Shown: positions 1,045 to 22,911 of the stretch, piece after piece
Layout: each line of letters opens with the position of its first letter
How positions within the stretch are numbered: position 1 is the first letter of the stretch
Origin: Candidatus Latescibacterota bacterium
Lineage (GTDB): Bacteria > Latescibacterota > UBA2968 > UBA8231
Assembly (NCBI GenBank): GCA_965248265.1
Contig: CBDFJF010000001.1
Coordinates: 576,001-640,000, forward strand
Direction: 5' to 3'
DNA: 64,000 nucleotides
Program-made: the position numbers and the translations under genes
Notes under the pieces: generated by a model
Database searches by the model: none
Seen by the model: the letters and a program-made list of their open reading frames with translations, nothing else
What the model was told of the DNA's origin: nothing

Positions 1045-1045
1045 C

Positions 1046-1447: not shown

Positions 1448-1451
1448 GCTA

Positions 1452-2882
<1,431 letters not shown>

Positions 2883-3749
2883 CTAATGCGCTACGGCTTC
2901 GGCGCCGCCGATGATATCCATCAATTCGAGTGTGATGGAGGCTTGGCGCTCCTTGTTCATTTCGCGGGTCAAATCCTCGATCAATTCCCCGGCATTCTTC
3001 GTGGCATTGTCCATGGCGGTCATGCGTGCTGCCTGCTCGCAGGCGTTTGATTCCAGCAACGCGCGCCAGATCTGAAAATTGACGTGACGCGGTACCAACT
3101 CCTCGAGCAGCACCCCTGGATCCGGTTCGAACAGATAGTCCAGACTGGTCTCCTCCTCCGCCCCCTCATCGCCTGGAACGATTGGCAGTAACTGCCTCGC
3201 CACCGGTACTTGCTGCGACACGGAGCGGAACTCGCTGAATACGATGGTCACGCGATCGGCTTCGTCTGACAGAAATCGTCGAGTCAGGTCCTGGCCGATC
3301 TGGGCGGCGCGGCTGAACACGAGGGAACCGAACACGTCCTCATGATCGTGGATGACGTTGTAACCTCTGTTGCGAAAAAAATCACGTCCCTTGCGGCCGA
3401 TGGTGATCACTCCGGCGGACTCGCCCCCTGTTTCCTCGCTCAACTCGCCCTGCGCCACGCGGCACAAATTGCCATTGAAACCGCCACACAAACCGCGGTC
3501 GGATGTCACCGTGACGACGATGGTCTTGTTGACGGGCCGCTCCGCCAACAAAGGGCTCTGCGACACGTCGACGCTGCCGTGCAGGCGCCTGAGCACACTG
3601 CTCAGCTGCTGCGCGTACGGACGCGCGCCTTCAATCGCCTCCTGGGCTCGCCGCATCTTGGCGGCGGCAACCATCTGCATGGCGTTGGTGACGCGCTGGA
3701 TGTTGGAGATGCTGGCAACGCGGGTGCGCAGCTCTCGAAGAGTGGCCAT
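2883..3749 (-). CDS. atpG: ATP synthase F1 gamma subunit
   Basis: SDRGLCGGFN, RMTAMDNATKNA, RQASITLELMDI. Confidence 0.98.
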   Translation of the reverse strand: MATLRELRTRVASISNIQRVTNAMQMVAAAKMRRAQEAIEGARPYAQQLSSVLRRLHGSVDVSQSPLLAERPVNKTIVVTVTSDRGLCGGFNGNLCRVAQGELSEETGGESAGVITIGRKGRDFFRNRGYNVIHDHEDVFGSLVFSRAAQIGQDLTRRFLSDEADRVTIVFSEFRSVSQQVPVARQLLPIVPGDEGAEEETSLDYLFEPDPGVLLEELVPRHVNFQIWRALLESNACEQAARMTAMDNATKNAGELIEDLTREMNKERQASITLELMDIIGGAEAVAH

Positions 3750-3775
3750 CGGCTAGTAGGTCATCCCCCGGCAAT

Positions 3776-5302: not shown

Positions 5303-5317
5303 GTGTCGGTATCCTCT

Positions 5318-5860
5318 TTAGTGTTCGCCGAGCAGTCTTCGGTGCAGGCGCTGCAACTGCGCTTCAACGGTGCCGTCGAAGACCGTGTCTCCGACCGTGG
5401 CGATCAAACCACCGCGCATGGCGTCGTCGACGCTGACCTCGAGCCTTATCTCGCCGCCGAAGTACCCAGACAGCTTTTGCCGCAAGTGGTCGGTTTGACT
5501 CTGATCGAGCGCTGTGGCCGAACGCACGTGAGCCGTGGAGACCCCGGAGCGCTCATCAATGATCTGCAGGCAAGCCTGCGTGGTTTCCTGGAGCATCTCT
5601 GCGCGCCTACGCTGGACCAACAGGCGCATGAAATTCATCGCCAACGCCTCGACCCGCCCTTCAAACACCTTCTCAAGAGCGGCCTGCTTTGAATCAATAC
5701 TGACCAGTCGATTCTGCAGAAAGTCACACAGTTCGCTGGAGCCGTTGAGCGCCGCGTCGATCCCTTCGAGATCACGACGCGTATTATCCAGCGCACCGGT
5801 TTCCTCTGCTGCATCCAGCAGGGTTACGGCGTAACGTCTGACGACTTCGGGAATGTTCAT
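5318..5860 (-). CDS. atpH: ATP synthase delta subunit
   Basis: RRYAVTL N-terminus, GGLIATVGDTVFDGTV C-terminus, and operon position. Confidence 0.95.
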   Translation of the reverse strand: MNIPEVVRRYAVTLLDAAEETGALDNTRRDLEGIDAALNGSSELCDFLQNRLVSIDSKQAALEKVFEGRVEALAMNFMRLLVQRRRAEMLQETTQACLQIIDERSGVSTAHVRSATALDQSQTDHLRQKLSGYFGGEIRLEVSVDDAMRGGLIATVGDTVFDGTVEAQLQRLHRRLLGEH

Positions 5861-6345
5861 GCTTCGGGAACCTGGGCGATCAGATCGTCCACCAGCTTGC
5901 GGTTGCTGTCAGCATCGATGTTGGCGTCGATAATGGCACCCGCCGCCTGCACGGCCAGGTCAGCGACTTCGCGTCGCAACTCGCCGATGGCGGCCGTCTT
6001 TTCACTCTCGATGGTACGCCGTGCCTGTTCCACGGTCTGCTGCGCTTCCGAGCGTGCCTCTTCGACAATCCCCTGACGCACCTTCTCCGCGGCCTCTCGG
6101 GCCTCGGCGATGATCTGCCGGGATTCAGCTTCAGCGCCGGCGAGCAACTTCTGATGCTCCTCCAGTGTTGACTGAGCGTCCTGGCGCGCGCGGTCAGCGC
6201 CTTCCAGCGCATCCCTGATGCGCGCCTCGCGTTCGTCCAGCGCGCCCAGCAACGGCTTCCAGACGGTGCGCTTCAGCACCAGCAGGACGACGACGAAAGT
6301 GACGATCGTCCAGACGATGAGTCCCGCGTGGGGGGTGAGTAACAT
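5857..6345 (-). CDS. atpF: ATP synthase Fo b subunit
   Basis: N-terminal TM helix, then WKPLLGALDEREARI and a long coiled coil. Confidence 0.96.
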   Translation of the reverse strand: MLLTPHAGLIVWTIVTFVVVLLVLKRTVWKPLLGALDEREARIRDALEGADRARQDAQSTLEEHQKLLAGAEAESRQIIAEAREAAEKVRQGIVEEARSEAQQTVEQARRTIESEKTAAIGELRREVADLAVQAAGAIIDANIDADSNRKLVDDLIAQVPEA

Positions 6346-6408
6346 AGTCGTGTCTCTCCCTAGGTAGCTATCCGTGCCACTATGTCGTTACGCTTTCCTT
6401 CCAGACCT

Positions 6409-6455
6409 AGACGTGATCTGCCAGACGTGATCTGCCAGACGTGATCTGATAGACG
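6409..6455. repeat. 14-bp tandem repeat (AGACGTGATCTGCC x3 plus a partial copy) in the atpE-atpF spacer
   Basis: Copies at 6409-6422, 6423-6436 and 6437-6450 (last ends AT), then AGACG. Confidence 0.85.
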
Positions 6456-6486
6456 CGAGCACACGACGTCGAGGTCGGACGAATCG

Positions 6487-6744
<258 letters not shown>

Positions 6745-6777
6745 TCATCACTGTCACCAACCAAACCGCCCACCGCC

Positions 6778-7599
6778 CTAGTGATCGGGATGAGCGGCCA
6801 TGCTGATGAACAGTGCCGAGAGCAGAGTAAAAATGAAGGCTTGGATGAAACCGATGAAAATCTCAAGCATGTAGATGGCTGCTGCGAAGGCGATGGAAAA
6901 CGGGGCCAGATAATAGCTCTTGAGCATTATGATCAGACCCAGAAAAACCAGTATCGCCACGTGTCCGGCGATCATGTTGGCGAACAGACGGATGGCCAGG
7001 GCGAACGGCTTGGACAACAGGCCCATGATTTCGATCGGAATCATGATCGGCAACAGCCAGGTAGGCATTCCAGACGGCACCAGGCTGCGACAGTAGCCGA
7101 CGAATCCGTTGTTGACGATGCCGCTGACCTGAGTGACCGTGAAGGTACACAGGGCCAGCGCCGCGGTAACGCTGATGTTGCCCGTTGCCGTGGCACTGTA
7201 GGGAAACAGGCCGATCAGATTGCAAAACAGGATGAAGAAGAAAACGGTGAGCAGGTACGGCATGTATTTGCGGCCGTCCTCGCCCATGATCGGGAGCACT
7301 ACCTCGTCACGGATGAAAAGGACCATCGCCTCGAACAGGTTGGCCAGCCCGAAGGGCACGGCTTTGGGCCTGCGGAAGGCTACGGTCAACAGCAAAATCA
7401 GCAGGCTGCTGGCCACCCACATCATCAGGACGTGTTTCGAGATGGATAAATCGATGCCGTAGATTGGAGCGAACTGCGGCAAGTTGATGTGCCCGTCGAC
7501 CCAGTTGTGGGCGTTGACGAAGGGCACGTCCAGCTGCTTGGAATCGAGGATGTGCCCGATGATATCTACTTGACCGTCTGACCCTGCGTCACCCGCCAT
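6778..7599 (-). CDS. atpB: ATP synthase Fo a subunit
   Basis: KPFALAIRLFANMIAGH and IQAFIFTLLS; FCB-like N-terminal extension (IIGHILDS). Confidence 0.97.
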   Translation of the reverse strand: MAGDAGSDGQVDIIGHILDSKQLDVPFVNAHNWVDGHINLPQFAPIYGIDLSISKHVLMMWVASSLLILLLTVAFRRPKAVPFGLANLFEAMVLFIRDEVVLPIMGEDGRKYMPYLLTVFFFILFCNLIGLFPYSATATGNISVTAALALCTFTVTQVSGIVNNGFVGYCRSLVPSGMPTWLLPIMIPIEIMGLLSKPFALAIRLFANMIAGHVAILVFLGLIIMLKSYYLAPFSIAFAAAIYMLEIFIGFIQAFIFTLLSALFISMAAHPDH

Positions 7600-7630
7600 T
7601 CAATCACTCAGCCAATATCGTCAGTGTTAT

Positions 7631-7659
7631 CTATCAGTTGATCTTGCTATCAGTTGATC
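7631..7659. repeat. Direct repeat CTATCAGTTGATC x2 in the atpI-atpB spacer
   Basis: Identical 13-mers at 7631-7643 and 7647-7659. Confidence 0.75.
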
Positions 7660-7697
7660 CGGTAGACGACTGATCGTCACCTACCAAACGTTCAAAA

Positions 7698-8033
7698 TTA
7701 TGACGCTTGATTGCTCTGGTCAACCCGAGCAGGATCGATCGGCTGTCGCCTCTCGCGCTCGTTGCGGCGCACGACCGCTACGATCTCGACGATCATAGCC
7801 AGGATGCAGGTCGTCCCCAGGCCGGCGACGAAATAGCCCGGATGGATTGGCGTCACCAGGAGCAGGATGGCGGAGGCGGCCGCCATCAGCACCAGCCGGA
7901 GCGCCATGCCTCCCAGAAACACCTTGACGAAAAGTTGCGGCCGGCTGTTCCAGGTCCACCGGATACTCAACCAAGCTATGGCCCCGTTGACGAGCGCCAG
8001 CCCGATACCACAGGCCAACCCTGCCCATATCAT
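7698..8033 (-). CDS. AtpI-like membrane protein
   Basis: Hydrophobic protein with FLGGMALRLVL between atpZ and atpB. Start set at ATG 8033 (ATGA overlap). Confidence 0.8.
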   Translation of the reverse strand: MIWAGLACGIGLALVNGAIAWLSIRWTWNSRPQLFVKVFLGGMALRLVLMAAASAILLLVTPIHPGYFVAGLGTTCILAMIVEIVAVVRRNERERRQPIDPARVDQSNQAS

Positions 8034-8320
8034 TCTGTTTCCTCTCCTTTGGCTTGAGGGTCCTGGTTCGTCGCAGGCCCATCGCCGTCCTCGCTGTCTG
8101 GACGGGTCAGCATCCGGTAAAGATGGTAGAAGGCCGCCGTCGCCCCAAAGAGCATGCCGGCGATCAACAGTAAGGGAGATGTAGATAGCTTGTCGTCCAG
8201 CCACCATCCTCCGATGGTCGCGATGATGATGGTAACGGCAAACTGCAATCCCGCTCCCAGCAACAGGCCGGCCTGGGCCATGCCTGCCTGTTTCTTTGTC
8301 CGCTTGTCATCAGCGGTCAT
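8030..8320 (-). CDS. AtpZ/AtpI family protein
   Basis: Two TM helices with the GWWLDDKLSTSP motif; first gene of the atp cluster. Confidence 0.88.
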   Translation of the reverse strand: MTADDKRTKKQAGMAQAGLLLGAGLQFAVTIIIATIGGWWLDDKLSTSPLLLIAGMLFGATAAFYHLYRMLTRPDSEDGDGPATNQDPQAKGEETE

Positions 8321-8339
8321 GGCTGCTTACCACTATTCC

Positions 8340-9752
8340 TCACCAACCGATCAAGCCGGCCTGGCGAGCGGCACTTACCAATGGTTCTGACCACACACCA
8401 CCTCCTACCGAAAACAAGAGCATCAATACCAGGGCGGCGGCGAGTGGGGGGTCGACATGGACGGCCACCGACTCGCCAGCACCGGGAGGCGATAGTACTC
8501 GGACGATCAACCGCGCATACACGTAAGCCATCAGCAGACTGTTGATCAATATGCCTAGGGCGAGCCCGCCAAAGCCGGCATCCAACACCGAACTCAATAC
8601 CCAGTAGCGGGCAGTGAATCCCATCGTCGGCGGCACCCCGACCAGCGCCAGTAGCAGGACCAGCAGCGTCCCTGCCAGCAGTGGGTGTCTACGTGCCAGG
8701 CCCAGACAGTCGTCGATCTCCAGCTCCGTTTCCCGCTGACGGCAAAGCGCCAGCAGCACGGCGCAGCAACCACATACCGCCATGCCGTAAAAGGACAGAT
8801 AGAACACAACCCCGCCACCACCGCGACTGCCCATCGCGCAGAGCCCGGCCAGGGCGTAGCCGATATGAGCGAGTGAGGCGTAGCCCAGCAGGCGCTTTAG
8901 CCGGCGCTGATTCATCGCCAGCAGATTGCCCACCGTCATCGTCAACACGGCAGCAACCCAGGTCAAGGCGACCGCATACTCCTCGACCAGGTCGAAGCCG
9001 ACGGCGCACAGGCGCATCGCCACGGCAACGGCCGAAGCCGTGCCAGCGGAGGCCAGCAGCGCCGATACCGGTGCGGGCGCGCCATGAAAAACGTCGGCAA
9101 ACCACATGTGTAAAGGGACGACGCCGATGCGGGCGCCGACAGCAACCGCGAGCAGGGCCATTCCCGCCAGCGTCAACCGGCTCACGGTGACGTCCGTACC
9201 GTGATACGCGGCGACGAGTTCCGCCAGGTCGGTCGTACCGGTCGCCCCGTACACGAGGACAAGCCCGAGAAGGAAGAACGCACTGGCGACGGCTCCCGTC
9301 ATCGCCAATCGGAGACCGGCCTCCACGGCGATCCGGCTCGACTTCCCGCAGATGATGAGAGCCTGTAGGGACAGGACAGCCAGCTCGAGACTGACAAACA
9401 GCAGCAACAGGTCATTTGCGCGCACCATCACCATCATCCCCAGCACCGAACACAACAGCAGAGGATAAAACGCCAAGCCCGGGGAATCTGTGTCTGCGCC
9501 GCGGTGGCGAGAGAGAGACATGAGGATGGTCAAGCAGGCAAAGCTCAGGATCAGGACGGTGCAGTAGGAGTAAAATTCGGCGGCGAAGCTCTGTCTGAGC
9601 GCAACGGCGAGAATGGCGAGACTACCGAAAAGACTGGTATAGCCCATGCTTGCCGTCACCCTGGAGCCCAGCGACGTAAAGAAGGCTTCGAGCAGGACCA
9701 CGGCGACGATCAGAGCTGCCAGCAGTAGCTCCGGAGTTGAGAAGAAATCCAT
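8340..9752 (-). CDS. nuoN: NADH-quinone oxidoreductase subunit N-like (divergent)
   Basis: NDLLLLFVSLEL, VPLHMWFADVFHGAPAP, KRLLGYASLAHIGY. Start at ATG 9752 (TAATG overlap). Confidence 0.9.
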   Translation of the reverse strand: MDFFSTPELLLAALIVAVVLLEAFFTSLGSRVTASMGYTSLFGSLAILAVALRQSFAAEFYSYCTVLILSFACLTILMSLSRHRGADTDSPGLAFYPLLLCSVLGMMVMVRANDLLLLFVSLELAVLSLQALIICGKSSRIAVEAGLRLAMTGAVASAFFLLGLVLVYGATGTTDLAELVAAYHGTDVTVSRLTLAGMALLAVAVGARIGVVPLHMWFADVFHGAPAPVSALLASAGTASAVAVAMRLCAVGFDLVEEYAVALTWVAAVLTMTVGNLLAMNQRRLKRLLGYASLAHIGYALAGLCAMGSRGGGGVVFYLSFYGMAVCGCCAVLLALCRQRETELEIDDCLGLARRHPLLAGTLLVLLLALVGVPPTMGFTARYWVLSSVLDAGFGGLALGILINSLLMAYVYARLIVRVLSPPGAGESVAVHVDPPLAAALVLMLLFSVGGGVWSEPLVSAARQAGLIGW

Positions 9753-11362
9753 TAAGGATTCTCCTCGATATTGACTGGATGCTGAGTGCTGTCCGTAGTC
9801 GCCGGTGCCAGCGGAGGCGCCGACTCGTCGTTTCCAACTCTGATGACGGAATACCCGGTCGTCGGCAGCCAACCGGTGATGTGGTCGACGGCCGGTGCCG
9901 TAACCTGCACTAGTGGCGCAGGGTGGAGGCCCAGAAACAGAACCAGTCCCAGGATGGCTACCGCCATCCCGGTGAGCGCGCCCCTGGAGCCGCCGGCTCC
10001 AGTCGAGTCGGCCCCAGTTGTGGCGGACAGCAGGGTGTAGGCAGCGACTGACAACCCCAGGAGCGTTGCTACAGTGTGGCCTGGAAACGCCGCGAAGCCG
10101 GCGACCATGCACAGGATAGCTCCGCTGAACGGGGCCGATGCTGGAAAGCCGAGGAAGGCGACGACAGCACTCCACCACAGCAGCGCTTGCCATCGCCCGA
10201 TCCGCTCGCCGCCCGCGGCCAGAGAAACTGAGAGGGCAAGCGCAACCAACAGCGCCCGCACGAGACCGTGACTGAGAGCATACAGGAAACTGCCCTGGAT
10301 ACCCTCACCCGTGAGCGTCCACAGGCCCAGCAAAATGACTCCGTTGAAGCCCAGGCACAGGTAAGCCAGCCGGCGACGCAAGGAAGAGCGCTGCCCGAGA
10401 GCAAGAGCCCCACCGTACAGAGCAACCCAGGCGGCCAGTGCACCTCCCCAGTGAGCACCGATCTGCTCGACGGGTTCGGGACACAGTGGCATGGCAAACC
10501 GCAGTATCACGTAAGTGGCTATCAGGGGCCAGCCGCCAACGACCACGACCGCGACCAGCGGATTTTTCGTGCGTAGCGCCAATAGATCCACCAACCAACC
10601 ATGAAACGGCGCGATCGGCAGCTGGATGACCAGGTACAATCCGAAGGCGGCGGCGATCCACATCTGCGCCTCAGCGGGCAGCGCAAGCGTCAGCAACTGC
10701 TCTGGATCGAGTTGGGGGCTGCCTGTCTTTTGCTGAGCCGTCGAGCGCACCGACAGGGCTGCAGCCAACAGCGCCAGTGTGGCCGCGTAGTTAAAGAGGA
10801 GAAACCTCAATGCGACCCGGCGGCGCTCACTGCTGCGCACGCCACCCCCTGCCTCGTCATCCTTGGCCATACAAAGAGCGAAAAACAGAGCGAAAACGGC
10901 GGCCTGAGAGAACAGCGTCAGCAGCAGGAGGTTGGCCGCGACGAAGACGCCCTGGAGCGATGCCATAGCCACCAGCAATCCCATGCTTGCCCCCCTACCG
11001 CCGACGGAATTTGCTGACATGGCGATGAGAAACAGGAGTGGGATGACAACCAGCGCGAAGACATTGAGATGGTCGATCCCCAGCTGCAGGTCGAGGCCCA
11101 GTGAAGGCGCCCATGGTACGCTGCCGGCGACCCCCACGGCCTGCGATCCTGCTGATCCGAACAATTCAACGGTTGAGTGGAACTGTTCCGGTAGATCCAG
11201 GAAGTTGCCAACAGCCAGTAACCCTAACGCCAATTCCAGAAAGGTCACGGCCAGCAGGACCAGACGGCGGCCCTGCCCCGACGCGGGTGGCAGGAGAGCG
11301 ACAACGGCTGCGCCGATCAGAGGCACGACCACGAAACTCGACAGGATCAGGGCGGGCATCAT
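9752..11362 (-). CDS. nuoM: NADH-quinone oxidoreductase subunit M-like (highly divergent)
   Basis: PWAPSLGLDLQLGID, PIAPFHGWL, RRRLAY and ALSHGL; lies between nuoL and nuoN. Start at ATG 11362. Confidence 0.85.
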   Translation of the reverse strand: MMPALILSSFVVVPLIGAAVVALLPPASGQGRRLVLLAVTFLELALGLLAVGNFLDLPEQFHSTVELFGSAGSQAVGVAGSVPWAPSLGLDLQLGIDHLNVFALVVIPLLFLIAMSANSVGGRGASMGLLVAMASLQGVFVAANLLLLTLFSQAAVFALFFALCMAKDDEAGGGVRSSERRRVALRFLLFNYAATLALLAAALSVRSTAQQKTGSPQLDPEQLLTLALPAEAQMWIAAAFGLYLVIQLPIAPFHGWLVDLLALRTKNPLVAVVVVGGWPLIATYVILRFAMPLCPEPVEQIGAHWGGALAAWVALYGGALALGQRSSLRRRLAYLCLGFNGVILLGLWTLTGEGIQGSFLYALSHGLVRALLVALALSVSLAAGGERIGRWQALLWWSAVVAFLGFPASAPFSGAILCMVAGFAAFPGHTVATLLGLSVAAYTLLSATTGADSTGAGGSRGALTGMAVAILGLVLFLGLHPAPLVQVTAPAVDHITGWLPTTGYSVIRVGNDESAPPLAPATTDSTQHPVNIEENP

Positions 11363-13197
11363 CGGCTCGTCAACCACACAACAGCCACAAGAGTGATGGC
11401 AGCGCTCAGCACGGCGGCCGTGACGGCCGAGGAAAAACGGCCGTCGTGCAGGGTTCCGATCAACCAACCGCAGACGCGAACGCCTGCGCCGATCCCGCGC
11501 AGGCACAGCAACTCGACGGCCACATCGACGAACGTCGATACCCGGTCCGCCAACCAACAGACGGACCGCGCAATGGCCGTGTAGAGATCGTCGAACAGCA
11601 ATCCATTTCCTAGCAGATGCCTCAGGAGGTGCGGCGGACGGCCGGTGACACCCCTGGGGCTCGGTCTCAGGCGCCCCACCAGGACCCACGCCCATCCACA
11701 TCCGGCGAGCGTGAGCACGACGCAGGCGATTCCGACCGTGGACTCCACCAGCACCGCCGAGGGCATCGCGCCGACGTCAGCGAAAGCCCGCGGGATTGCA
11801 GCCGCCAGACGGATCGGAGAAGCCTGGTGACTGATTAACATCGCAATGACAGCAAGACCGGACAGACAGGCCATGAAGGCGACAGGAACTGTGGTCGAGC
11901 CCTCGCGGATCACAGTACGGGGATTGACACCCGTGAAAATGCCGAACAGCAGGCGGAAAAGGTGGAGGGAGGTAAGCAGCACGACCAGGCTTCCCAGAAT
12001 CGCGAAGGGAGTGCTCTCTGCCGCAGCTGCCTCCAGGAACGACAGCTGCACCCAGAAACTCGCGAACGGGGGCAACACCAACACGATGGTGGCTACCAGA
12101 GTGAACCGGTACGCCGTCTTCAAGTGGACCCGCAGACCACCAAGTGTGGACAGCTCAAAGGCCGCCGAACTCGCGCGCTCGGCCAGGCCGGTGGTGAGCA
12201 GGAGTACACATTTGACACAGGTATGAATCGACAACTGCAGCAATGCCACGGCCGGCATTCCCATGGACGCGAGGGTCAGGGCGATCGCGCCCTGGCTTGA
12301 GGTGGAATAGGCCAGCGACCGGCGGGGGTCGCGAGCGGCCGCGGCACAAGCCGCCATCAGCGCGGCACCGGCCAATCCAATGCCCGACAAACCTTCCGGA
12401 GACATCAGCTGCCAGGATCGAACCAGCAGGTAGAGACCGAGCGGGACCGCGAAGACGACCTGGATGAAGGTGGCTGCCGGCGTCCCTAACGACGCGCTTC
12501 GCTCCAACCAGGGATGCAACGGCCACATGCCAGTCCGGGCAATACCAGCCACCGCAATCGACAGGCCGATGACGGCAGTTGTCGAACCCCCCAAGACCTC
12601 CACGAAGGCGACGGAACCCAGGTGCAAGAGCATGAACACGAGCGCGCTCAGGAGTCCCAGCGAGGCGAGGCCCTGGAAGACCAAAGTCCGCGCCGCGGCC
12701 GGACCGTCGCCGCGCAAACGGACCAGCAGCCAGGTCGACAACGCGACTCCCTCCCAACCGGCATACAGCATACCGTAATTGTTGGCGATCACCGCCAAGA
12801 GTGCACAGGACACTCCGAAGTGGACGACGGCGTCCTGGCGGCGCTGCTGATGGAGTTCCTCAGTCTCAAATGCCGATTTGCATACATGGACCGCCAGGTT
12901 GGTCGAGGCCACGACGAAGGCTGTGATCGCGGACATTGGATCGATGAGAAAACCGGCCGTTATGACGGTGTCCTGCCCCAGGACGATCCAGGTCATGACA
13001 TCCCAGTTTGCTGTCACCGCTGTACCGCAGCTCAAGACCAGAAGCACCAGCGCACACAGCCAGGTGAGGGCGGCAGTATTGATACCACGCATGCGCAACG
13101 CGCCTGTAGATCGCGCGCCCGCTGTGGCGACGGCTCCTGCCAGTGGCGTGAGCAGAAGACCGTATGCGGCTATTTTCGTTAGCAGAACCAACTGCAT
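11359..13197 (-). CDS. nuoL: NADH-quinone oxidoreductase subunit L-like (divergent)
   Basis: GFLIDPMS, GWEGV, PLHPWL, LAYSTSSQ, IHTCVK and a C-terminal FDDLY lateral-helix region. Confidence 0.88.
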   Translation of the reverse strand: MQLVLLTKIAAYGLLLTPLAGAVATAGARSTGALRMRGINTAALTWLCALVLLVLSCGTAVTANWDVMTWIVLGQDTVITAGFLIDPMSAITAFVVASTNLAVHVCKSAFETEELHQQRRQDAVVHFGVSCALLAVIANNYGMLYAGWEGVALSTWLLVRLRGDGPAAARTLVFQGLASLGLLSALVFMLLHLGSVAFVEVLGGSTTAVIGLSIAVAGIARTGMWPLHPWLERSASLGTPAATFIQVVFAVPLGLYLLVRSWQLMSPEGLSGIGLAGAALMAACAAAARDPRRSLAYSTSSQGAIALTLASMGMPAVALLQLSIHTCVKCVLLLTTGLAERASSAAFELSTLGGLRVHLKTAYRFTLVATIVLVLPPFASFWVQLSFLEAAAAESTPFAILGSLVVLLTSLHLFRLLFGIFTGVNPRTVIREGSTTVPVAFMACLSGLAVIAMLISHQASPIRLAAAIPRAFADVGAMPSAVLVESTVGIACVVLTLAGCGWAWVLVGRLRPSPRGVTGRPPHLLRHLLGNGLLFDDLYTAIARSVCWLADRVSTFVDVAVELLCLRGIGAGVRVCGWLIGTLHDGRFSSAVTAAVLSAAITLVAVVWLTSR

Positions 13198-13509
13198 TTA
13201 GCCCTCGAACTCCGGCGATCGCTTGTCGAGATCGGTGTCACCACCGCGACGGTGGCGCAGGCACAGCAATGACAGCAGGACGACGGCTTGCCCTACACCG
13301 GCGGCCAACGTGATCAGGGCCATCACCTGGCCGGAATCGTCAGCATGAAAGTGTGCGAAGGCTGCGAGGGTGACGACGGCTCCCAACCCCATCAGCTGAA
13401 ACCCCAGGATGACGGCCAGAACGTTGCGCCGCAGGACGATGCCCGTTAGCCCGAGCCCGAACAGGAGCAAACCAAAAAGCGTAGTCACCTGCAGGATCGC
13501 CGCGCTCAT
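13198..13509 (-). CDS. nuoK: NADH-quinone oxidoreductase subunit K-like
   Basis: LFGLGLTGIVLRRN and GQVM motifs; both conserved Glu appear as Gln. Confidence 0.9.
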   Translation of the reverse strand: MSAAILQVTTLFGLLLFGLGLTGIVLRRNVLAVILGFQLMGLGAVVTLAAFAHFHADDSGQVMALITLAAGVGQAVVLLSLLCLRHRRGGDTDLDKRSPEFEG

Positions 13510-14093
13510 GGACCCTCCCCGGTACTGGCAGGATCATCTACCCGATTGGATTCGACAATCGCCAGCGTGGTGGCGAAAAGGACGAAGCCGATGACGATGA
13601 ATGACACCAAGTGTCTCCTCACCAGTAGACCGGTGAGTGACTCGCTATCGGCAACCACGCCATCGGCGACGATGGCGGCAGTGGTCTCCCCTTGGACGGC
13701 GACCGTTGGAGCTATCCCTGGAGTCGCCGCAATGACACCGAGCGCGACTACCAGGATTGCGGCCGCGCACAAGATCAGCCTTCGCCTCTTGGAATCCGAG
13801 GCGGCTCGCGGACCTTGCCGCGAGTGTCCCACGAGCGGAGTGCCCGATTCTTCTTGATTGACAACCATGTGACCTACGAGATAGACGGCGGCGATGACAC
13901 CACCCTGCATCAGGACTAGCCCGATGGCAACCAGTGGCGCATTCGCGAAGATCCCCACGATGCCGGCTGCGGCCAGGACCACCACGCCGAGAGCGAGAGC
14001 AGACCGAGTCACCGATCGACTGGTGGCGACGACGACGGCGGCGGCCACGGCGAGTGCTGCCAGTAACACGTACAGGACCAGACCGGAGATCAC
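13506..14093 (-). CDS. nuoJ: NADH-quinone oxidoreductase subunit J-like
   Basis: Multi-TM protein between nuoH and nuoK. GTG start at 14093 overlaps the nuoH stop (GTGA). Confidence 0.8.
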   Translation of the reverse strand: MISGLVLYVLLAALAVAAAVVVATSRSVTRSALALGVVVLAAAGIVGIFANAPLVAIGLVLMQGGVIAAVYLVGHMVVNQEESGTPLVGHSRQGPRAASDSKRRRLILCAAAILVVALGVIAATPGIAPTVAVQGETTAAIVADGVVADSESLTGLLVRRHLVSFIVIGFVLFATTLAIVESNRVDDPASTGEGP

Positions 14094-15115
14094 GCGTTTG
14101 TCATCATTTTCAGGAGCCGCGAACCGACCGCTACCATCAGCAGATTGGCAAAAGCCAGCGGCAGCAGGTATTTCCAGCCGACGGTGGCTGCGCGCTCGAG
14201 TACCAGCGACGGCAGGCTCGAACGGACCCAGAGAAACAGCAGGACGACAGCGGCGGTTTTGATGACGGTTGCGCTGGCCTGCACATGCGGCACTTCCCCG
14301 TTGCCGACGAGTCCGGGAATGTGCCACCCCCCCAGGTACAGGGTGACGAGGAAGGCGCTGGCGGCTATCAGATGCACCCGCTCCGCCACCAGCATCAAGG
14401 CCAAGTGGCGGCCGCTGTAGAGGCTGCCGAGGCGGCCGCCTCTGGTCGGGTCTCGCTGGGTGAGTGGACGCCAGGGGATAATCTGCAGGAGGGCGGCGAA
14501 GCAGACGACGAAACCCAACGGTTGAACCATCAGGTTCCAGGCGAGGATGACGTGTCCGTCGATCGCTGTCTGGGCGGCGATGATCTGGTCAAAACGAGCT
14601 GTTCCGCCGGCCGTTATGACTCCGAAAACGGCGACCCCGAGCGCCAGGTAACAGCTCAGCTGGCGCGCCACCAGACGCAGTCCTCCGAAATCACGAAAGC
14701 CTCCTATTTGAGCGCGGGTTCCGGCGATCAGACCAACCTGGAGAGCGATGAAGCCCAGGGCCATGACGTAGACGACCCCCAGGCTGGTGTGCCCTCCCCA
14801 CGCCGCCAGCGCTGTCCAGAGCCCACCACCATCACTCTGGCAAAACGGAACCACGGCGAGGGCGGTGAACGAAATGGCCAACAACAGAGGGGCGGCCCAC
14901 TTGCCGCCAGCTCCAGCCGCGGCCCGTGGCGATCTCTTTGACGCCAGCTTGATCAGATCGGCTACGGGGCGCAATCCGAAACCCGCCCGCTGGCGCCTGC
15001 CCGGCGCGGTCCGGTACTCAGCGAGCATGATCGCCATGACTCCGATCGCCGTACATAACAGCAGCGCGCCGTTGGAGCCCAGCGCGTTGATGAGTGGAAG
15101 GTCCTGGAAGGCCAA
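14090..15115 (-). CDS. nuoH: NADH-quinone oxidoreductase subunit H-like (divergent)
   Basis: PVADLIKL, GGLR, YSG, LYLGGW, WVRSSLP, GWKYLLPL. The TTG start at 15115 is approximate. Confidence 0.87.
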   Translation of the reverse strand: MAFQDLPLINALGSNGALLLCTAIGVMAIMLAEYRTAPGRRQRAGFGLRPVADLIKLASKRSPRAAAGAGGKWAAPLLLAISFTALAVVPFCQSDGGGLWTALAAWGGHTSLGVVYVMALGFIALQVGLIAGTRAQIGGFRDFGGLRLVARQLSCYLALGVAVFGVITAGGTARFDQIIAAQTAIDGHVILAWNLMVQPLGFVVCFAALLQIIPWRPLTQRDPTRGGRLGSLYSGRHLALMLVAERVHLIAASAFLVTLYLGGWHIPGLVGNGEVPHVQASATVIKTAAVVLLFLWVRSSLPSLVLERAATVGWKYLLPLAFANLLMVAVGSRLLKMMTNA

Positions 15116-15116
15116 T

Positions 15117-16796
15117 TCAGTCGGTATCCGCCGGCCGCTGTCTCGACAGCCAGTCTCGTTTGTTGTGATCGTCAACGGCCAGAAAACCACGTCGTTGCAG
15201 AGCGGTGGACCATCCACCGCCGTAGGCCTGTGCGATACCTGCCGCACCGAGCCCCGCACCCGGGTCCCCCTGATTCTGATCGAGGACAGTCTCGGCTTCC
15301 GCTATGACGGAGTTCGGCGCCGCGAATCGAACCGCCACTCGTTTGAGAATCTCGATATCGTCCAGGCACCCGGGAGCGGGTCCAACGGCCTTTTGCAACC
15401 GCTGAAGGTGCCCGTCGGCGTTGGTCATGGTACCGGCTTTTTCTGGGAAACTGCATCCTGGCAGCACGACCCGCGCCAGGGCGGCCAGTTCGTCCTGCAG
15501 GATATCCAGGACGACCAGATTGTCGGCAACAGCACCCAGGGCGCTGAGCTCGATGTCGTCCGGCCGAACGCCCGGTCCCCCACCCACAACGAAGGCCGCA
15601 CCGATCAATCCCTCCTGCAGTGCTTCCACCATCTGATCCATCCCCAGCAAACTCTGGCCCAGCTCTGCCGCCACCCCTTTGATGCCATGCGAATTCGCCG
15701 CCTTGTCGCCTCGAATCGTGAATCCACTCGGGTAGATCGTGTCGCCTTCCGTAGCGAGGGACTGCCGCAAGGATATCAATTCGGTGTCCCAGCCTTGAGC
15801 AAGGCGAATCAACAGACGGGCTTCCTCGTTCGTCATCTGGCCGCCGAGTATGACTCCGATCTGCTGTCCCTGAGAGCGGCAGGCGGTAAAAGCGAGATGA
15901 ATGGCCTCGCACGCGTCCTCCCAAGATGCGACAACGTCTGCAACGCCATCAGCTGACTGGATCAGGGGATGCGTCAACCGCTCCGAACTGTGGACGTAGT
16001 GCCATCCGTGACGTCCATCATCGCACATCCAGTACTCGTTGACATCCATGTTCACGCGGGGCTTGAGTCTCTTCACCTGATCGCCGGCAACATCGATGCG
16101 GATGTTGCATCCGGAGGAACAGCCGGTGCAGATCGAGTCGACACCGCGCAATCTCCAGGCCGGCTGCAGCTGGAAACGCTTGTCGATCAGAGCACCGGCC
16201 GGACACAGATCCACGGTGTTGCCGGACAGCCGATTGTCCATCTTTGACCCGGGAAAGGTAGCGACTTCGAGGCGGTCACCTCGATCGAACATCGACAGCT
16301 CTTCCGTACCGGTGACCTCCGCGCAGAAACGGACGCAACGGGTACAATGGATGCATTTCCCCGGGTCTATGGCAACGTGATCTCCCAGATCCCGAATTTC
16401 ACTCGCGCCCTTTTCGGGAAGCACGTATGGACCGTCGCCGCCGTAGGCGAAGCTGAATTCCTGTAACTCGCACTCTCCCGAATTGTCGCACGATGGACAT
16501 TCCAATGGGTGCCGCACCAGCTGGAACTCAAGCGCTGTAGCTCGCGCCTGCCTTACGGCCTCCGATTCCGTGCGCACCACCATGCTGTCCTGTACCTGCG
16601 CATCGCACGCCGTCGTCAAACGCCAGCCGTCGTCGTCTCGCACCTCTATCGCACATAGCCGACACAGTGCCGGAGTAGACAGGGCCGGATGAAAACACAG
16701 ATGGGGGACGAAAATTTCAGCCTCGAGAGCGCCCATGAGCAGATTGGCCCCGTCCTCGATCTCCAGCGCTCTGCCGTCCCATGTTATTCGGGCCAT
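15117..16796 (-). CDS. nuoG: NADH-quinone oxidoreductase subunit G-like (short form)
   Basis: Motifs for N1b (LCFHP...CRLC...TAC), N5 (HPLECPSCDNSGEC), N4 (CIHCTRC...CP) and N7 (CTGCSSGC...C). Confidence 0.93.
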   Translation of the reverse strand: MARITWDGRALEIEDGANLLMGALEAEIFVPHLCFHPALSTPALCRLCAIEVRDDDGWRLTTACDAQVQDSMVVRTESEAVRQARATALEFQLVRHPLECPSCDNSGECELQEFSFAYGGDGPYVLPEKGASEIRDLGDHVAIDPGKCIHCTRCVRFCAEVTGTEELSMFDRGDRLEVATFPGSKMDNRLSGNTVDLCPAGALIDKRFQLQPAWRLRGVDSICTGCSSGCNIRIDVAGDQVKRLKPRVNMDVNEYWMCDDGRHGWHYVHSSERLTHPLIQSADGVADVVASWEDACEAIHLAFTACRSQGQQIGVILGGQMTNEEARLLIRLAQGWDTELISLRQSLATEGDTIYPSGFTIRGDKAANSHGIKGVAAELGQSLLGMDQMVEALQEGLIGAAFVVGGGPGVRPDDIELSALGAVADNLVVLDILQDELAALARVVLPGCSFPEKAGTMTNADGHLQRLQKAVGPAPGCLDDIEILKRVAVRFAAPNSVIAEAETVLDQNQGDPGAGLGAAGIAQAYGGGWSTALQRRGFLAVDDHNKRDWLSRQRPADTD

Positions 16797-16797: not shown

Positions 16798-18156
16798 TTA
16801 GTAACGCACGCTTACGCTATCCGGCACCCTGAACCCGGGGTCTTTCAGCTCCTGCATTGGGCAGGCTCCTGCCGTAGCGTGCGCCTCGAATTCGGCTCTG
16901 AACGAATGGAAGAAATCCTGCACGGTCCAAGCGAAGGCGCTACCGAATCCACACAGCGCCGTGGTCTGCTCAGGCCGGAGCCGGGGGGCGATCTGACGCG
17001 CCACGGATTCGATCAGCTTCACCTCGTCGGCGTCACCCCCCTTACCCTCCTCCAGTCGTTGCAGCAACTGGAGGATCCAACTCGAGCCCTCCCTGCACGG
17101 CGCGCACTGCCCGCACGATTCCACCGCATAGAAGCGCATCATCTGGATCGCCGTGTCCACCATGCAGGTGGTATCATCCAGGACGATGACCGCGCCGTTG
17201 CCGAAGGCTCCATCGATCGGTCCTGCGCCGGGTATCGCCCATTGTTGGGGGTCGAGATCGACATCGAGCTGCTGTGGCTGCAGAACCGTCGACAGTGTGC
17301 CACCGACGATGACCGCCTTGAGCGAGCGACCATCGGGTACACCACCGGCGTAGTCGTCTACCAACTCCCTCAGCGTCGCCTCGCCCAAAGCCAGTTCGTA
17401 CAAACCTGGACGACGCACGTGCCCGCTGACACAAAACACGCACGTACCTGGATAGGCATGCGTGCCGATGGTCCTGAACTCGACCGCACCGGCTGACAGA
17501 ATGTCAGGTAGATAGGCCAGGGTGCCGACGTTGTGGACAACGGCCGGCTCGCCAAAGAGGGTGCGTGGGGACGACGCCGGTGCCGGCTCAGGTCGTCCCC
17601 CTTCGAGCCCCTGTAGCAAGGCCGATTCCTCGGCGGCAATATGGGCACCACCCCCTGGATGCACGTAGACATCCAGGTCGAAACCACTGCCGGCAATATC
17701 ACGCCCCAGCCAGTTGGCTTTGTAGGCCTCGTCTATTGCCTGGTTGATGACGGTGGTTGGACGGGCAAGTTCACCTCTCACGCATAGATAGGCGACCCGT
17801 GCGCCAAGAGCTCGGGCGGCGATGAGTATACCTTCGAGAAGGCGATGAGGTACGCGCTCCATGAGCTTGCGGTCACGAAACAGACCCGGATCGGCATCGT
17901 AGGCATTGACACACAGGTAGGGCGGCGGTGCCGACGTCATCGCCGGCTGCGCCGACCGCCGCCACTTATCCGCGACCGGCTCCCAACCGCCGCCACGACC
18001 GCGCAGACCACTGGCGGCGACTTCCTCCAGCAGCTGCTGTTGGGTCATGGCCAACGCCTTGGCCGCTCCCCGATAGCCGCCGTGGGTGAGGTAGGCCTGG
18101 ATGCCCTCGATGTCGGGGATCTCGATATTCTTGAGGAGCAGTCTGTGCTCAGCCAT
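16798..18156 (-). CDS. nuoF: NADH-quinone oxidoreductase subunit F-like (remodelled nucleotide site)
   Basis: SGLRGRGG, PHRLLEG, SGHVRRPGLYE and the N3 motif ESCGQCAPCREG...LCGFG. Confidence 0.93.
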   Translation of the reverse strand: MAEHRLLLKNIEIPDIEGIQAYLTHGGYRGAAKALAMTQQQLLEEVAASGLRGRGGGWEPVADKWRRSAQPAMTSAPPPYLCVNAYDADPGLFRDRKLMERVPHRLLEGILIAARALGARVAYLCVRGELARPTTVINQAIDEAYKANWLGRDIAGSGFDLDVYVHPGGGAHIAAEESALLQGLEGGRPEPAPASSPRTLFGEPAVVHNVGTLAYLPDILSAGAVEFRTIGTHAYPGTCVFCVSGHVRRPGLYELALGEATLRELVDDYAGGVPDGRSLKAVIVGGTLSTVLQPQQLDVDLDPQQWAIPGAGPIDGAFGNGAVIVLDDTTCMVDTAIQMMRFYAVESCGQCAPCREGSSWILQLLQRLEEGKGGDADEVKLIESVARQIAPRLRPEQTTALCGFGSAFAWTVQDFFHSFRAEFEAHATAGACPMQELKDPGFRVPDSVSVRY

Positions 18157-18160: not shown

Positions 18161-18667
18161 TCAGTCCTCGATACGCTCTACGGTACGCTCTAGTAATTGA
18201 GTCAGTTTCTCGAGACTCAGGCTTTCATGCAGCTCGTCGTCTACGAGCATCACCGGAGCCGTGCTGCAGGATGCCAGACACGGAACACGTTCGAGGGTGA
18301 AATGGCCGTCCAGGGCCGTGTCCCCCGGCTCAATGCCGAGCGCGACACGCAGTTGGCCCAGAACCGTTTCAGCACCCATCAAGCGGCAGGAGAGGCCATC
18401 GCACACCCGCAGCCGGCTTCTACCAGCCGGCTTGTCAGTCCTCAGCAGGGGATAGAAACTGGCCACGCCGGCAGCTCGAACTGGAGGTATTGCCAACAGG
18501 TCGGCCACGTGGCCGATCACAGACGGTGAGCACCAGCCCCACTCTCGCTGTGCCAGCAGCAGGACCGGAAGAAGCGCACCGCCAGCCTCGGGATAGCGCT
18601 CCCGGATGCGCTGGTACTCGGCCTCCGTGTCCGGACCGAAAGCCAATTTGTCGATGGTCTGCTCCAT
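18161..18667 (-). CDS. nuoE: NADH-quinone oxidoreductase subunit E-like
   Basis: GVASFY and the 2Fe-2S motif CDGLSC...CLASC. Start at ATG 18667 (TGATG overlap). Confidence 0.93.
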   Translation of the reverse strand: MEQTIDKLAFGPDTEAEYQRIRERYPEAGGALLPVLLLAQREWGWCSPSVIGHVADLLAIPPVRAAGVASFYPLLRTDKPAGRSRLRVCDGLSCRLMGAETVLGQLRVALGIEPGDTALDGHFTLERVPCLASCSTAPVMLVDDELHESLSLEKLTQLLERTVERIED

Positions 18668-20319
18668 CACCGGTCCATCTCCGCAGGCACCACATTGAGA
18701 CTGCACAGAGCCTGGCGCGCTTGTGCCATCGGCAGATCGGCGACCAGGCCTCCGGCGACCTGAAAGTTCAACAACGAAGGCGAGCGCAGGTGGAGCCGGT
18801 AGGGCCGGTCGGTGCCGTCTGCGCACAAGAACACGCCGAGCTCGCCATTCGGACTCTCGGTCGCTTGGTAACACTGGGCGCCCGCCGGCAGGCGAAGGCC
18901 ATGCCCCTCCGTCCACAACTGCATGTGGCGGATCATTACCTCCACGCGTTCGCGCACTTGCTCGGACGTGCCCGGAAAAACGCGGGCGTCCTCGGTGCGC
19001 CAGGCACCGGTCGGCATCGACCGCAAAGCCCGTTCGATGAGGCCGGTACTCTCCACCATCTCCTCCATGCGCACCCGGCAGCGATCCAGCGCGTCGCCGT
19101 TCGAGCCAACGGGCACCTCGAAATCCAGCTCGCCATACGCCAGGTACGGCGTCGTCTTGCGCAGATCCGACTCCGTGCCGCAGGCACGCTGGACCGGACC
19201 ACTCAAACCCCATTCGGCGGCTTCATGGGCGCTCAGCGCTGCCACTCCGTCGACCAGGTCACGCCACAGGCGATTGCCCATGAGCTGCTTGTGCAACCGT
19301 GCCACCGCAACTCGTATCGACCGCGACAAGGCCAGCGCGCAGTTCATGAAATCATCCGGAAAATCGGCTGCCTGTCCCCCGATAGCCAGTAATCCGGTAC
19401 CGGTACCCACACCTCTCAACCGACCCATCGTCTCCAGTACTGCAGCACGCAGCTGCATGGCTTGTCGCCAAACTCTGTCGGCGCCGGCCGTCTCGGTTTG
19501 GATCGACAGCCAAGCCAGGTGTCCCGCGAGGCGGGAAAGCTCGGCGATGACGACACGCTGAAAGTTGCCTCTCGGTGGCACCTCGATTCCCAGCATCGCC
19601 TCGACCGCCAGTGCGAGGGTCAAGCTGGCGGCGTGAGGGGACTGGTCGTTCAGGCGTTCGCACACAACCATGTTCTGTATACAAGTCAACGACTCGGAGA
19701 GCTTCTCGATGCCACTGTGGGCAAATCCAGGCACCGGAGCAGCACGCACCACCCGGCCGGCCACCACCTCGAGGCGCATGCGCAGTGTCGGTATCGGCGC
19801 GACCAGAGCCGCGGTGTCCGGGCCAGTTGGCACAGGATTACCGGTTTCGCCCTCACCGAGCAAGGGATAGCGCTTGCGCAGCGGGTGAACGGAGGAGGGG
19901 GAGTGCAGGATCAGGGCTCGGGTCGTGGATCTGCCGGTAAAGCGGACCCCGAACATCTCCGCCACCTCACGCTCCTGCCAGTCTGCGCCCGGAAACAGAT
20001 CGGTGACGCTGGCCAGCGTGGTTTCTTCTGGATCGAAATCAGCACTCAATTGCAAACACGCAAAGGGTGTCTGGACTGACCGCAACTGGTAGACTATCCG
20101 CAGAGGCGCCGCCTCACCGGCGAGAGCGGACAGATCGACTGCAGTCATATCTGCGAGGGTGTAGCTTCCGTCCGTCCTCAGCGAGGTGAGCACCTCGTGC
20201 ACGGCATCCGCTTCCAGTACCAGCAATGTGCGTCCAGCAACTTCACGGATCTCGGCCGTCGGAAAGTTGACATGCAAGGTGGACAGCACGGTGTCGGCCT
20301 CGGCGAGTGTTTCAGCCAT
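18667..20319 (-). CDS. nuoCD: Fused NuoC/NuoD-like protein (quinone site degenerate)
   Basis: NuoC part WQEREVAEMFG...HPLRK. NuoD part GFAHSGIEK, GLSGPVQRA, ESPNGELG, RSPS and C-terminal EMDR. Start at ATG 20319. Confidence 0.9.
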   Translation of the reverse strand: MAETLAEADTVLSTLHVNFPTAEIREVAGRTLLVLEADAVHEVLTSLRTDGSYTLADMTAVDLSALAGEAAPLRIVYQLRSVQTPFACLQLSADFDPEETTLASVTDLFPGADWQEREVAEMFGVRFTGRSTTRALILHSPSSVHPLRKRYPLLGEGETGNPVPTGPDTAALVAPIPTLRMRLEVVAGRVVRAAPVPGFAHSGIEKLSESLTCIQNMVVCERLNDQSPHAASLTLALAVEAMLGIEVPPRGNFQRVVIAELSRLAGHLAWLSIQTETAGADRVWRQAMQLRAAVLETMGRLRGVGTGTGLLAIGGQAADFPDDFMNCALALSRSIRVAVARLHKQLMGNRLWRDLVDGVAALSAHEAAEWGLSGPVQRACGTESDLRKTTPYLAYGELDFEVPVGSNGDALDRCRVRMEEMVESTGLIERALRSMPTGAWRTEDARVFPGTSEQVRERVEVMIRHMQLWTEGHGLRLPAGAQCYQATESPNGELGVFLCADGTDRPYRLHLRSPSLLNFQVAGGLVADLPMAQARQALCSLNVVPAEMDR

Positions 20320-20713
20320 CGGAATCCGTGACGGGCGAGCGCTCTTCCCAGTCGAAGGCCCGTCGACGGGCAGCGTACACGAAGGCGCAGAGCAGGACGA
20401 TGATGAAAACGGCAACGACACCGAGCACGGCCGCATCACCATCCAGCAACTGATTGAACCCGAGAGCCCATGGCAACAGCAGGACGAGCCCTGCTTGAAA
20501 AACCGCTGCGATGAGCGCGATTCGGTAGAAGGGCAGGATTTGAGCCGGTGTGGACTGCGTTTGAGAGTCCCGCGCGGACGCCGTGTCATCGGCTCTATCG
20601 CGGCTGAGCAAGCGTGCCCCGAACAAGAAAGCCGCCGCAAACAGAAGGATTGCGACGGCTGAGATCACGGCAGCTGGAATTTCGATTGCGACCTCGTAGG
20701 CGGGAAGAGCCAC
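20312..20713 (-). CDS. nuoA: NADH-quinone oxidoreductase subunit A-like
   Basis: Three TM helices, FYRIAL...LLPWA and a C-terminal RRAFDW; first gene of the nuo cluster. Confidence 0.82.
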   Translation of the reverse strand: MALPAYEVAIEIPAAVISAVAILLFAAAFLFGARLLSRDRADDTASARDSQTQSTPAQILPFYRIALIAAVFQAGLVLLLPWALGFNQLLDGDAAVLGVVAVFIIVLLCAFVYAARRRAFDWEERSPVTDSDG

Positions 20714-21038: not shown

Positions 21039-21060
21039 CGACCCGCTCCCTGCTATTACC

Positions 21061-22907: not shown

Positions 22908-22911
22908 CGGC

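Follow-up and report, generated by a model that had tools for sequence, protein, structure and literature searches.

How the reduction of quinone drives proton pumping about 200 Å away in respiratory complex I is still debated, and the usual test is the single charge-neutralising mutant made in the laboratory. A locus of the marine organism Candidatus Latescibacterota bacterium (GenBank assembly GCA_965248265.1) raises the question of what the enzyme becomes when most of these charges are gone together. The stretch of DNA analysed here, hereafter the window, comprises 64,000 nucleotides of contig CBDFJF010000001.1 and corresponds to C1:576001-640000 of a 7.3-Mb genome assembled in two contigs (C1 and C2). 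Its minus strand carries, from 20713 to 8340 (~12.4 kb), eleven tightly packed genes in the order nuoA-CD-E-F-G-H-J-K-L-M-N, and the stops and starts of all eleven frames abut or overlap, with every frame intact (Table 1; window products are marked with a prime where needed). An original prediction, made from the letters alone, had claimed that charged residues along the pumping axis were systematically replaced by glutamine, and that selection had removed proton transfer but kept a polar axis, either to prevent leak or to carry another ion or water. Our analysis points, with evenly balanced confidence, to a second, rapidly evolving paralog of complex I, selected and redox-competent, that would no longer pump in the canonical way and whose membrane arm would serve mainly as a scaffold.

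The substitutions were placed on the E. coli K-12 nuo locus, on which the residue numbers of the original prediction were verified. Each membrane subunit was aligned with MAFFT L-INS-i to its E. coli counterpart, to 8-12 relatives, and to the genome's own canonical copy, which belongs to a conventional 11-subunit nuoABCDHIJKLMN operon without nuoEFG at C1:252066-261488. In these alignments the E-channel set (NuoH E157, NuoA D79/E81, NuoJ Y59, and NuoK E36/E72) reads Y, Q/G, Q, and Q/Q, a loss of the canonical feature. The individual changes are NuoH E157Y within LSCY (codon 14648-14650), NuoA D79Q (codon 20495-20497) and E81G, NuoJ Y59Q (codon 13905-13907), and NuoK E36Q within GFQLM (codon 13396-13398) and E72Q within VGQAV (codon 13288-13290). 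The conserved NuoA residues E51, R63, and K67 are changed too. In NuoH, the loop between transmembrane helices (TM) 5 and 6 has T, D, T, and G in place of D213, E216, E218, and E220 and contains three Arg, and has thereby become basic; E228 is replaced by Leu. The gap that MAFFT opens at NuoH E36/R37 is probably an artefact, as an AEYR stretch sits there, and no weight is placed on that site.

The Glu/Lys/His sets of the three antiporter-like subunits are depleted to different degrees. NuoM keeps none of its four residues, its changes being E144Q, K173R, K234Q, K265L, H322F, and E407A (Gln codons 10904-10906 and 10622-10624). NuoL keeps only the TM5 Glu (E144), H338, and K342, and carries K229R, H254Q, H334Q, K399Q, D400L, and D178S (Gln codons 12460-12462, 12235-12237, and 12046-12048). 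NuoN keeps only the TM5 Glu (E133) and carries K158R, K217R, K247T, and K395R, so that its TM7 and TM12 Lys positions are Arg. Every substitution that the original prediction had listed in NuoK, NuoM, NuoL, NuoJ, NuoN, NuoA, and NuoH was reproduced, including all of the roughly nine convergences on Gln, which proved to be exactly nine, and including the pattern in which NuoL and NuoN retain the TM5 Glu and exchange Lys for Arg (NuoL E144 with K229R; NuoN E133 with K217R/K395R). A misplacement of canonical Glu or Lys within the same helices finds no support in independent HMMER alignments to E. coli structures, in which a clade profile gave the same five NuoM pairings as MAFFT against the solved chain 7p61_M, and NuoH gave the same pairings for E157, the loop, and E228 against 7nyh_H.

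The losses extend to the site where quinone is reduced. In NuoCD', both ligands of the quinone head are gone, with H224 replaced by Ala (19810-19812) and Y273 of the RLDY motif by Asp (19645-19647). The original prediction did not cover this loss, nor the presence of a second complex I beside the conventional one, nor the location of nuoB and nuoI elsewhere in the genome. Among the NuoCD sequences of the same clade, the His is absent in 3/3 and the Tyr site holds Asp or Glu in 3/3; across related NuoCD clusters, the Tyr position is polar in most. Clusters at 50% identity were surveyed through the 150 representatives nearest to NuoCD'. Both ligands are kept in 61, both lost in 53, only the His lost in 11, and only the Tyr lost in 10, with the sites partly covered in 9 and uncovered in 6; the automatic procedure aligned the His loop with less certainty than the Tyr motif. 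With 53 of the 150 lacking both, complex-I-like enzymes without canonical quinone ligands appear to be numerous, in keeping with the idea of Ehr complexes (see below). The iron-sulfur ligands tell a different part of the story: the four N1a Cys of NuoE and the four N3 Cys of NuoF are kept, as are all E. coli Cys columns shown from C34 to C263 of NuoG. Electron input looks intact, but the site of canonical output is altered, as is the coupling path.

Close orthologs indicate how these genes evolve. Clade orthologs from a large protein collection are 59-88% identical for NuoM (four full-length and two partial), 55-90% for NuoL (n = 6), and 70-91% for NuoK (n = 9), and they retain protein length and clade-specific conserved blocks. 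Clade site counts given below include the window protein together with its orthologs; conservation is readable in this way for NuoK, NuoL, NuoM, NuoCD, and part of NuoN. A close orthologous operon at the DNA level was not found in scans of genome contigs, and a metagenome scan gave only a 2.2-kb contig (L029). Relative to this 78%-identical sequence, the ratio of nonsynonymous to synonymous substitution rates (dN/dS) is 0.22 for NuoM (309 codons, dS 0.57) and 0.11 for NuoN (417 codons, dS 0.53), and the key residues of NuoN are identical in the two. Contigs from a related organism (run X5) span all 12.4 kb of the operon with ~5% nucleotide differences. The indels among the differences listed are two in-frame insertions, one of 6 nt and one of 32/33 nt, the latter matching an 11-residue insert in L029 NuoN. 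The dN/dS values and the in-frame indels among those listed indicate that the genes are under purifying selection. In addition, a metagenome protein of 287 residues (P0055) is 85% identical to NuoCD' over its first 189 residues and then matches the C-terminal part of NuoH'; it may represent either a nuoCD-nuoH deletion variant or a mis-assembly.

Relatives place the neutralised state as a derived one. With NuoL' as the query, 17 of 41 related genomes gave matches, and 11 loci were taken for comparison. Three genomes from other families of the class (G028, G030, and G040; loci L015, L016, and L017) carry the same operon without nuoB and nuoI, and a fourth (G026) carries a partial locus. In the three loci, all canonical residues checked are present (E36/E72, Y59, D79/E81, E157, the loop acids, all Lys/Glu/His of NuoL and NuoM, and both quinone ligands of NuoD); the one exception is the final antiporter-like gene of L017, an Mrp-like one. 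Their NuoG is short, their NuoD has an HTG/HSG variant of the HRG motif, and orphan-type NuoB and NuoI are encoded elsewhere in those genomes. Because the same type of operon retains the canonical residues in other families, the neutralised state is derived. In L017 (G040:C3, 13850-17850), nuoM is separated by ~2 kb of additional sequence from the final antiporter-like gene, whose product is closer to the Mrp-like protein of the window genome than to NuoN and has the same residues at the checked columns.

Members of the window's own family have divergent versions of the operon with other losses (G004, locus L018; G008 and G021, loci L019/L021). NuoK E72Q and NuoL K229R occur in 3/3 of these loci and NuoH has E157G, while NuoK E36 is either kept or Gly, NuoL E144 is Thr or Val, and NuoM retains E144. 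Thr replaces the NuoD His in L019/L021; the G004 contig does not include NuoCD. The different sites and replacements suggest that the losses were largely independent or stepwise, and, among the sequences compared, the window version is the most derived state known of the operon without nuoB and nuoI. The NuoH' terminal branch measures 2.62 substitutions per site, whereas the median is 0.13, and the exact placement in the trees is subject to long-branch warnings. A recent duplication of the genome's own 11-subunit operon was considered and rejected, as NuoH' and NuoN' branch separately from the canonical copy and as the gene order and the absence of nuoB and nuoI match the operons of other families.

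Two observations concern canonical-type operons in this group. Two relatives (G012 and G023) have a full 14-gene operon including nuoB and nuoI. NuoM of the window genome's 11-subunit operon (C1:258521-260194) has Leu at E. coli K234, as does that of G001, and G012 and G023 have Trp; E144 and E407 are kept in all of these, and K265 is kept in the 11-subunit type and is Asn in G012/G023. The TM7 Lys of NuoM is thus not universal even where the operon is otherwise canonical. Separately, the nuo genes of another locus (L023; G020:C393) share 50-72% identity with their E. coli counterparts (NuoI 72%, NuoH 61%), far nearer than other loci of the family, which suggests horizontal acquisition or assembly contamination.

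A complex built from this operon would require two further electron-transfer subunits. The operon holds twelve nuo families (A, C, D, E, F, G, H, J, K, L, M, and N), with no room for nuoB between nuoA and nuoCD or for nuoI between nuoH and nuoJ; B and I are present only as orphans, assigned to the operon by co-occurrence. Searches of the genome by tblastn with E. coli Nuo proteins and by family located the orphan nuoB at C2:3819239-3819670, with four Cys in the CC...GSC...GCP (N2) pattern, and an orphan nuoI-like gene, flanked by RNase Y and dxr (C2:3326343-3326930), with two CxxCxxCxxxCP motifs. The orphan type of NuoB (44-56% identical) occurs in 7/7 relatives with the operon lacking B and I and is the sole NuoB in G008 and G021. 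In the window genome, the orphan nuoB overlaps the end of an upstream gene for a P-loop iron-sulfur carrier of the NUBPL/ParA (Mrp-type) family (the two genes together span C2:3818211-3819670), with dnaK and dnaJ further upstream. The eukaryotic homolog of this carrier (Ind1/NUBPL) is a complex I iron-sulfur assembly factor.

We hypothesize that the products of the orphan nuoB and nuoI supply the two missing subunits, and that the complex assembles and oxidises reduced nicotinamide adenine dinucleotide (NADH) through its conserved N-module and iron-sulfur ligands. The sites that couple redox chemistry to pumping are now non-titratable (mostly Gln or hydrophobic) or Arg, and purifying selection maintains these replacements. 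The change covers both quinone ligands of NuoD, the loops of NuoH and NuoA, the E-channel of NuoH/A/J/K, the NuoM quartet, and part of the NuoL and NuoN sets. With no titratable residue left at the examined E-channel and NuoM positions, the canonical proton relay presumably cannot run, and the membrane arm would be retained for a structural role, as a scaffold. Gln may have been favoured in this process since it would remove buried charge and keep size and hydrogen bonding. In Paracoccus denitrificans, mutations of Nqo13 are reported to slow catalysis and never to uncouple it (PMC9802314). Strict coupling of this kind suggests that the loss of pump residues alone would stall a canonical enzyme, and makes it plausible that a lineage abandoning pumping remodelled the quinone site and the axis jointly, which fits the pattern seen here.

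Several observations weigh against the scaffold interpretation. First, redox competence is read from the conserved ligands only, and both quinone ligands are gone. Second, the link of the orphan NuoB and NuoI to the operon rests on co-occurrence: the orphan NuoI type is present in 7/7 genomes with the operon lacking B and I, but three further genomes (G005, G017, and G019), in which the NuoL query found no such operon, have it too, and the closest orphan-type NuoB belongs to a genome that is 84% complete (G011) and in which no antiporter-like gene was found. Finally, NuoL keeps E144, R229, H338, and K342, and NuoN keeps E133 and has Arg at 217 and 395, so residual ion handling is possible.

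Among the alternatives, the one that fares best holds that NuoEFG serve the conventional 11-subunit complex, and that the divergent A/CD/H/J-N proteins form an alternative docking or assembly platform or a storage form rather than an independent enzyme. The conventional operon lacks nuoEFG, and the other EF-like genes of the genome appear to have a different role. At C2:2983555-2988084, a NuoE/F fusion of 567 residues is followed by a NuoG-like iron-sulfur protein and then by a separate molybdopterin subunit, a cluster that looks like an NAD-linked formate dehydrogenase with its catalytic subunit split in two frames, which leaves the window operon with the only true nuoEFG of the genome. NuoE, NuoF, and NuoG are also the best conserved products of the operon, 37-49% identical to relatives (NuoF 44-49%) against 24-30% for NuoL and NuoM. 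However, G008 and G021 have the divergent operon and one NuoB and no 11-subunit operon (their six PF00361 hits fall in the operon and an Mrp-like cluster), so that the N-module cannot serve another complex there, and the membrane subunits are themselves under purifying selection. In general, 11-subunit complexes use other electron donors. We consider this alternative unlikely.

It is also quite unlikely that the enzyme still pumps at reduced stoichiometry through the retained NuoL and NuoN residues, with a quinone site that uses the Asp or Glu replacing the Tyr. Such pumping would account for the invariance of NuoL E144, R229, H338, and K342 in the clade (7/7), for the presence of NuoN E133, R217, and R395 in the L029 ortholog, and for an acidic residue at the Tyr position in all three clade NuoCD sequences, a position that most of the related clusters also fill with a polar residue. 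Against it, Arg shuttles protons poorly, and the route from quinone to NuoN and NuoL passes the E-channel and NuoM, where every titratable residue checked is gone. The strict coupling reported for the Nqo13 mutants implies that a blocked NuoM would halt turnover (PMC9802314).

The preference for Gln invites a further alternative, in which a Gln-lined axis was selected to conduct Na+, water, or passive protons, or to block leak, and the arm is still a transporter. The preference itself is real. Of 79 alignment columns in which 7-10 canonical sequences hold D/E/K/R/H almost without exception, 33 are unchanged in the window proteins; the other 46 have become Gln (9), Arg (8), a gap (5), or something else (24). 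Gln makes up 2.5% of the window proteins (60 of 2390 residues), which gives a binomial P of 1.8e-6 for nine Gln, and a null model combining BLOSUM62 with composition expects 2.5 Gln where 9 are observed among the 41 non-gap changes (P ~7e-4). Gln is also among the leading replacements in three other divergent lineages (5/24, 4/27, and 4/36). Its frequency there suggests that the preference is general for surrendered buried charges and is not organism-specific, and it looks like a general outcome of removing buried charge while packing must stay.

The conservation of the Gln residues bears on the same alternative. The expectation of the original prediction that they would be conserved among orthologs held at five sites, where Gln is invariant in the clade (NuoK 36 and 72, 10/10; NuoM 144, 5/5 of the sequences covering the site; NuoL 254 and 334, 7/7), and failed at two, NuoM 234 (Gln 5, Met 1, Val 1; n = 7) and NuoL 399 (Gln 4, Leu 2, Tyr 1; n = 7). 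Distant orthologs have Gly, Val, Thr, or the original residue at the Gln sites, which partly agrees with the random scatter that would speak against the prediction. The five invariant positions, the location of the operon between those for a Na+-translocating NADH:quinone oxidoreductase (Na+-NQR) and an ATP synthase, and the TM5 Glu paired with Arg in NuoL and NuoN are consistent with a transporter. Against this, the axis is not continuously polar: besides the two variable Gln sites, NuoM has Leu at 265 and Phe at 322 in 7/7 clade sequences and Ala (5), Phe (1), or Val (1) at 407 (n = 7). There is no cation-binding carboxylate at the examined E-channel positions, any transport would have to be powered from a degenerate quinone site, and the genome's own Mrp-like trio (C2:2932484-2937130) retains the canonical Lys, Glu, and His. 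The c subunit of the adjoining ATP synthase reads ...VEGVA..., which we take to be of the H+ type. We find a selected conducting axis distinctly improbable. The part of the original prediction stating that selection removed proton transfer stands, in that the canonical proton-transfer residues are gone from genes with dN/dS of 0.11-0.22; the polar axis does not, as the axis of NuoM is largely hydrophobic, and for another ion or water we found no supporting evidence, the examined E-channel positions being devoid of carboxylates and the site of energy input altered.

That the membrane genes are slowly decaying relics without function, a reading to which unusually low Pfam scores (NuoL 76, NuoM 52, NuoA 38, and NuoJ 35 bits), very long branches, and the 46 changed columns might point, is highly improbable and a pseudogene was rejected, given the eleven intact coupled frames, the low dN/dS, orthologs that are 55-91% identical and keep length and conserved blocks, and a ~5% different X5 operon with in-frame indels among those listed.

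We return to the redox-competent scaffold and, more tentatively, propose that the operon encodes a natural "pump-dead" yet complete complex I held by purifying selection for a new job. Two such jobs can be envisaged from the sequences: non-electrogenic oxidation of NADH in which a new acceptor takes the electrons at the remodelled N2 site, or a membrane-arm role that does not involve translocation. In this organism, evolution has neutralised most of these charged residues at once and kept the outcome under selection, and relatives preserve canonical and intermediate states. The enzyme could therefore reveal what the complex I scaffold does without its charge relay, and could separate the folding from the pumping roles of the retained NuoL E144/R229/H338/K342 and NuoN E133. 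If the interpretation is correct, the graded series from canonical to partly to fully neutralised operons records a stepwise dismantling of the coupling machinery. It also carries a warning for annotation, in that calling a "nuo operon" does not imply a proton pump.

Table 1. Genes of the divergent nuo operon, in operon order (window coordinates).
Gene	Coordinates	Strand	Product and features
nuoA'	20312..20713	-	133 residues, GTG start; Pfam Oxidored_q4, E = 2.2e-9, 38 bits
nuoCD' (fusion)	18667..20319	-	550 residues; Pfam Complex1_30kDa and Complex1_49kDa; directly after nuoA
nuoE'	18161..18667	-	168 residues; Pfam 2Fe-2S_thioredx, E = 5.5e-40
nuoF'	16798..18156	-	452 residues; Pfam Complex1_51K, SLBB, NADH_4Fe-4S
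nuoG' (short form)	15117..16796	-	559 residues; Pfam Fer2_4, NADH-G_4Fe-4S_3, Fer4_Nqo3, Molybdop_Fe4S4, Molybdopterin
nuoH'	14090..15115	-	341 residues, TTG start; Pfam NADHdh, E = 8e-35; nuoJ directly next
nuoJ'	13506..14093	-	195 residues, GTG start; Pfam Oxidored_q3, 34.7 bits, barely above cut-off
nuoK'	13198..13509	-	103 residues; Pfam Oxidored_q2
nuoL'	11359..13197	-	612 residues; Pfam Proton_antipo_M, only 76 bits
nuoM'	9752..11362	-	536 residues; Pfam Proton_antipo_M, only 52 bits
nuoN'	8340..9752	-	470 residues; Pfam Proton_antipo_M, 183 bits

The operon lies within a single bioenergetic supercluster of ~27 kb. Upstream on the same strand is a complete Na+-NQR operon, nqrA-F with nqrM (window 20790-26958), and downstream, also on the minus strand, an F-type ATP synthase operon with atpI, B, E, F, H, and A (window 1-8207). 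A scan for promoters and terminators gave 1 promoter-like site (2.4 expected) and 12 terminator-like sites (9.6 expected), and no usable signal for transcription units. The guanine-cytosine content across the window has no island signature. The adenine-thymine skew of the plus strand is 0.22-0.34 over the membrane-subunit genes (window 8001-14000) against ~0.05 elsewhere, as the T-rich codons of hydrophobic proteins encoded on the minus strand would lead one to expect.

By descent and architecture the operon product is a member of the complex I superfamily, as judged from its genes, and one that lacks three features defining the proton-pumping enzyme: its ligands for the quinone head, an E-channel with the canonical residues, and the charge sets of the antiporter-like subunits. 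Full-text searches, with subscription journals outside their scope, found no description of a nuo operon without nuoB and nuoI and none of a naturally charge-neutralised membrane arm. An identity as an Mrp antiporter, a type with MrpB/C/E/F/G and no peripheral redox arm, was rejected because genes for NuoA, NuoCD, NuoE, NuoF, NuoG, NuoH, and NuoJ are part of the operon, although no search for MrpE/F/G was made. A group 4 [NiFe] hydrogenase or Ehr complex does not fit either: no CxxC pairs, the NiFe motif of the hydrogenase large subunit, were seen in NuoCD', NuoEFG and seven membrane subunits are present, and the best solved-structure matches of NuoCD' are complex I 49-kDa subunits (E = 5e-66) against 7e-19 for the hydrogenase MBH.

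Ehr complexes, reportedly described by Marreiros et al. in 2013, belong to the relatives of complex I and group 4 hydrogenases whose catalytic, NuoD-like subunit is degenerate and devoid of NiFe cysteines and quinone ligands. The window operon resembles them in its NuoD-like subunit. Unlike Ehr, a small Nuo-like set without NuoEFG, it stems from a 14-subunit NADH-dependent Nuo and has NuoEFG and seven membrane subunits. The engineered Nqo13 variants of P. denitrificans are similar in that Glu, Lys, or His on the central axis is replaced by neutral residues (PMC9802314). However, those are single laboratory mutants, reportedly slowed and strictly coupled, whereas here dozens of sites and the quinone site have changed together and are kept by selection. 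A further comparison is with the canonical bacterial complex I (E. coli NuoA-N; 7p61, 7nyh), with which the operon shares subunit families, gene order, the NuoCD fusion, the N-module, and the iron-sulfur ligands, as well as a NuoL' of equal length that aligns to the C-terminus and, in NuoM', the broken-helix motif PxxPxHxW. Unlike the E. coli enzyme, nuoB and nuoI lie outside the operon, the NuoD His and Tyr, the Glu, Asp, and Tyr of the E-channel, and the whole Lys/Glu set of NuoM are lost, and parts of the NuoL and NuoN sets have become Gln, Arg, Thr, or Leu.

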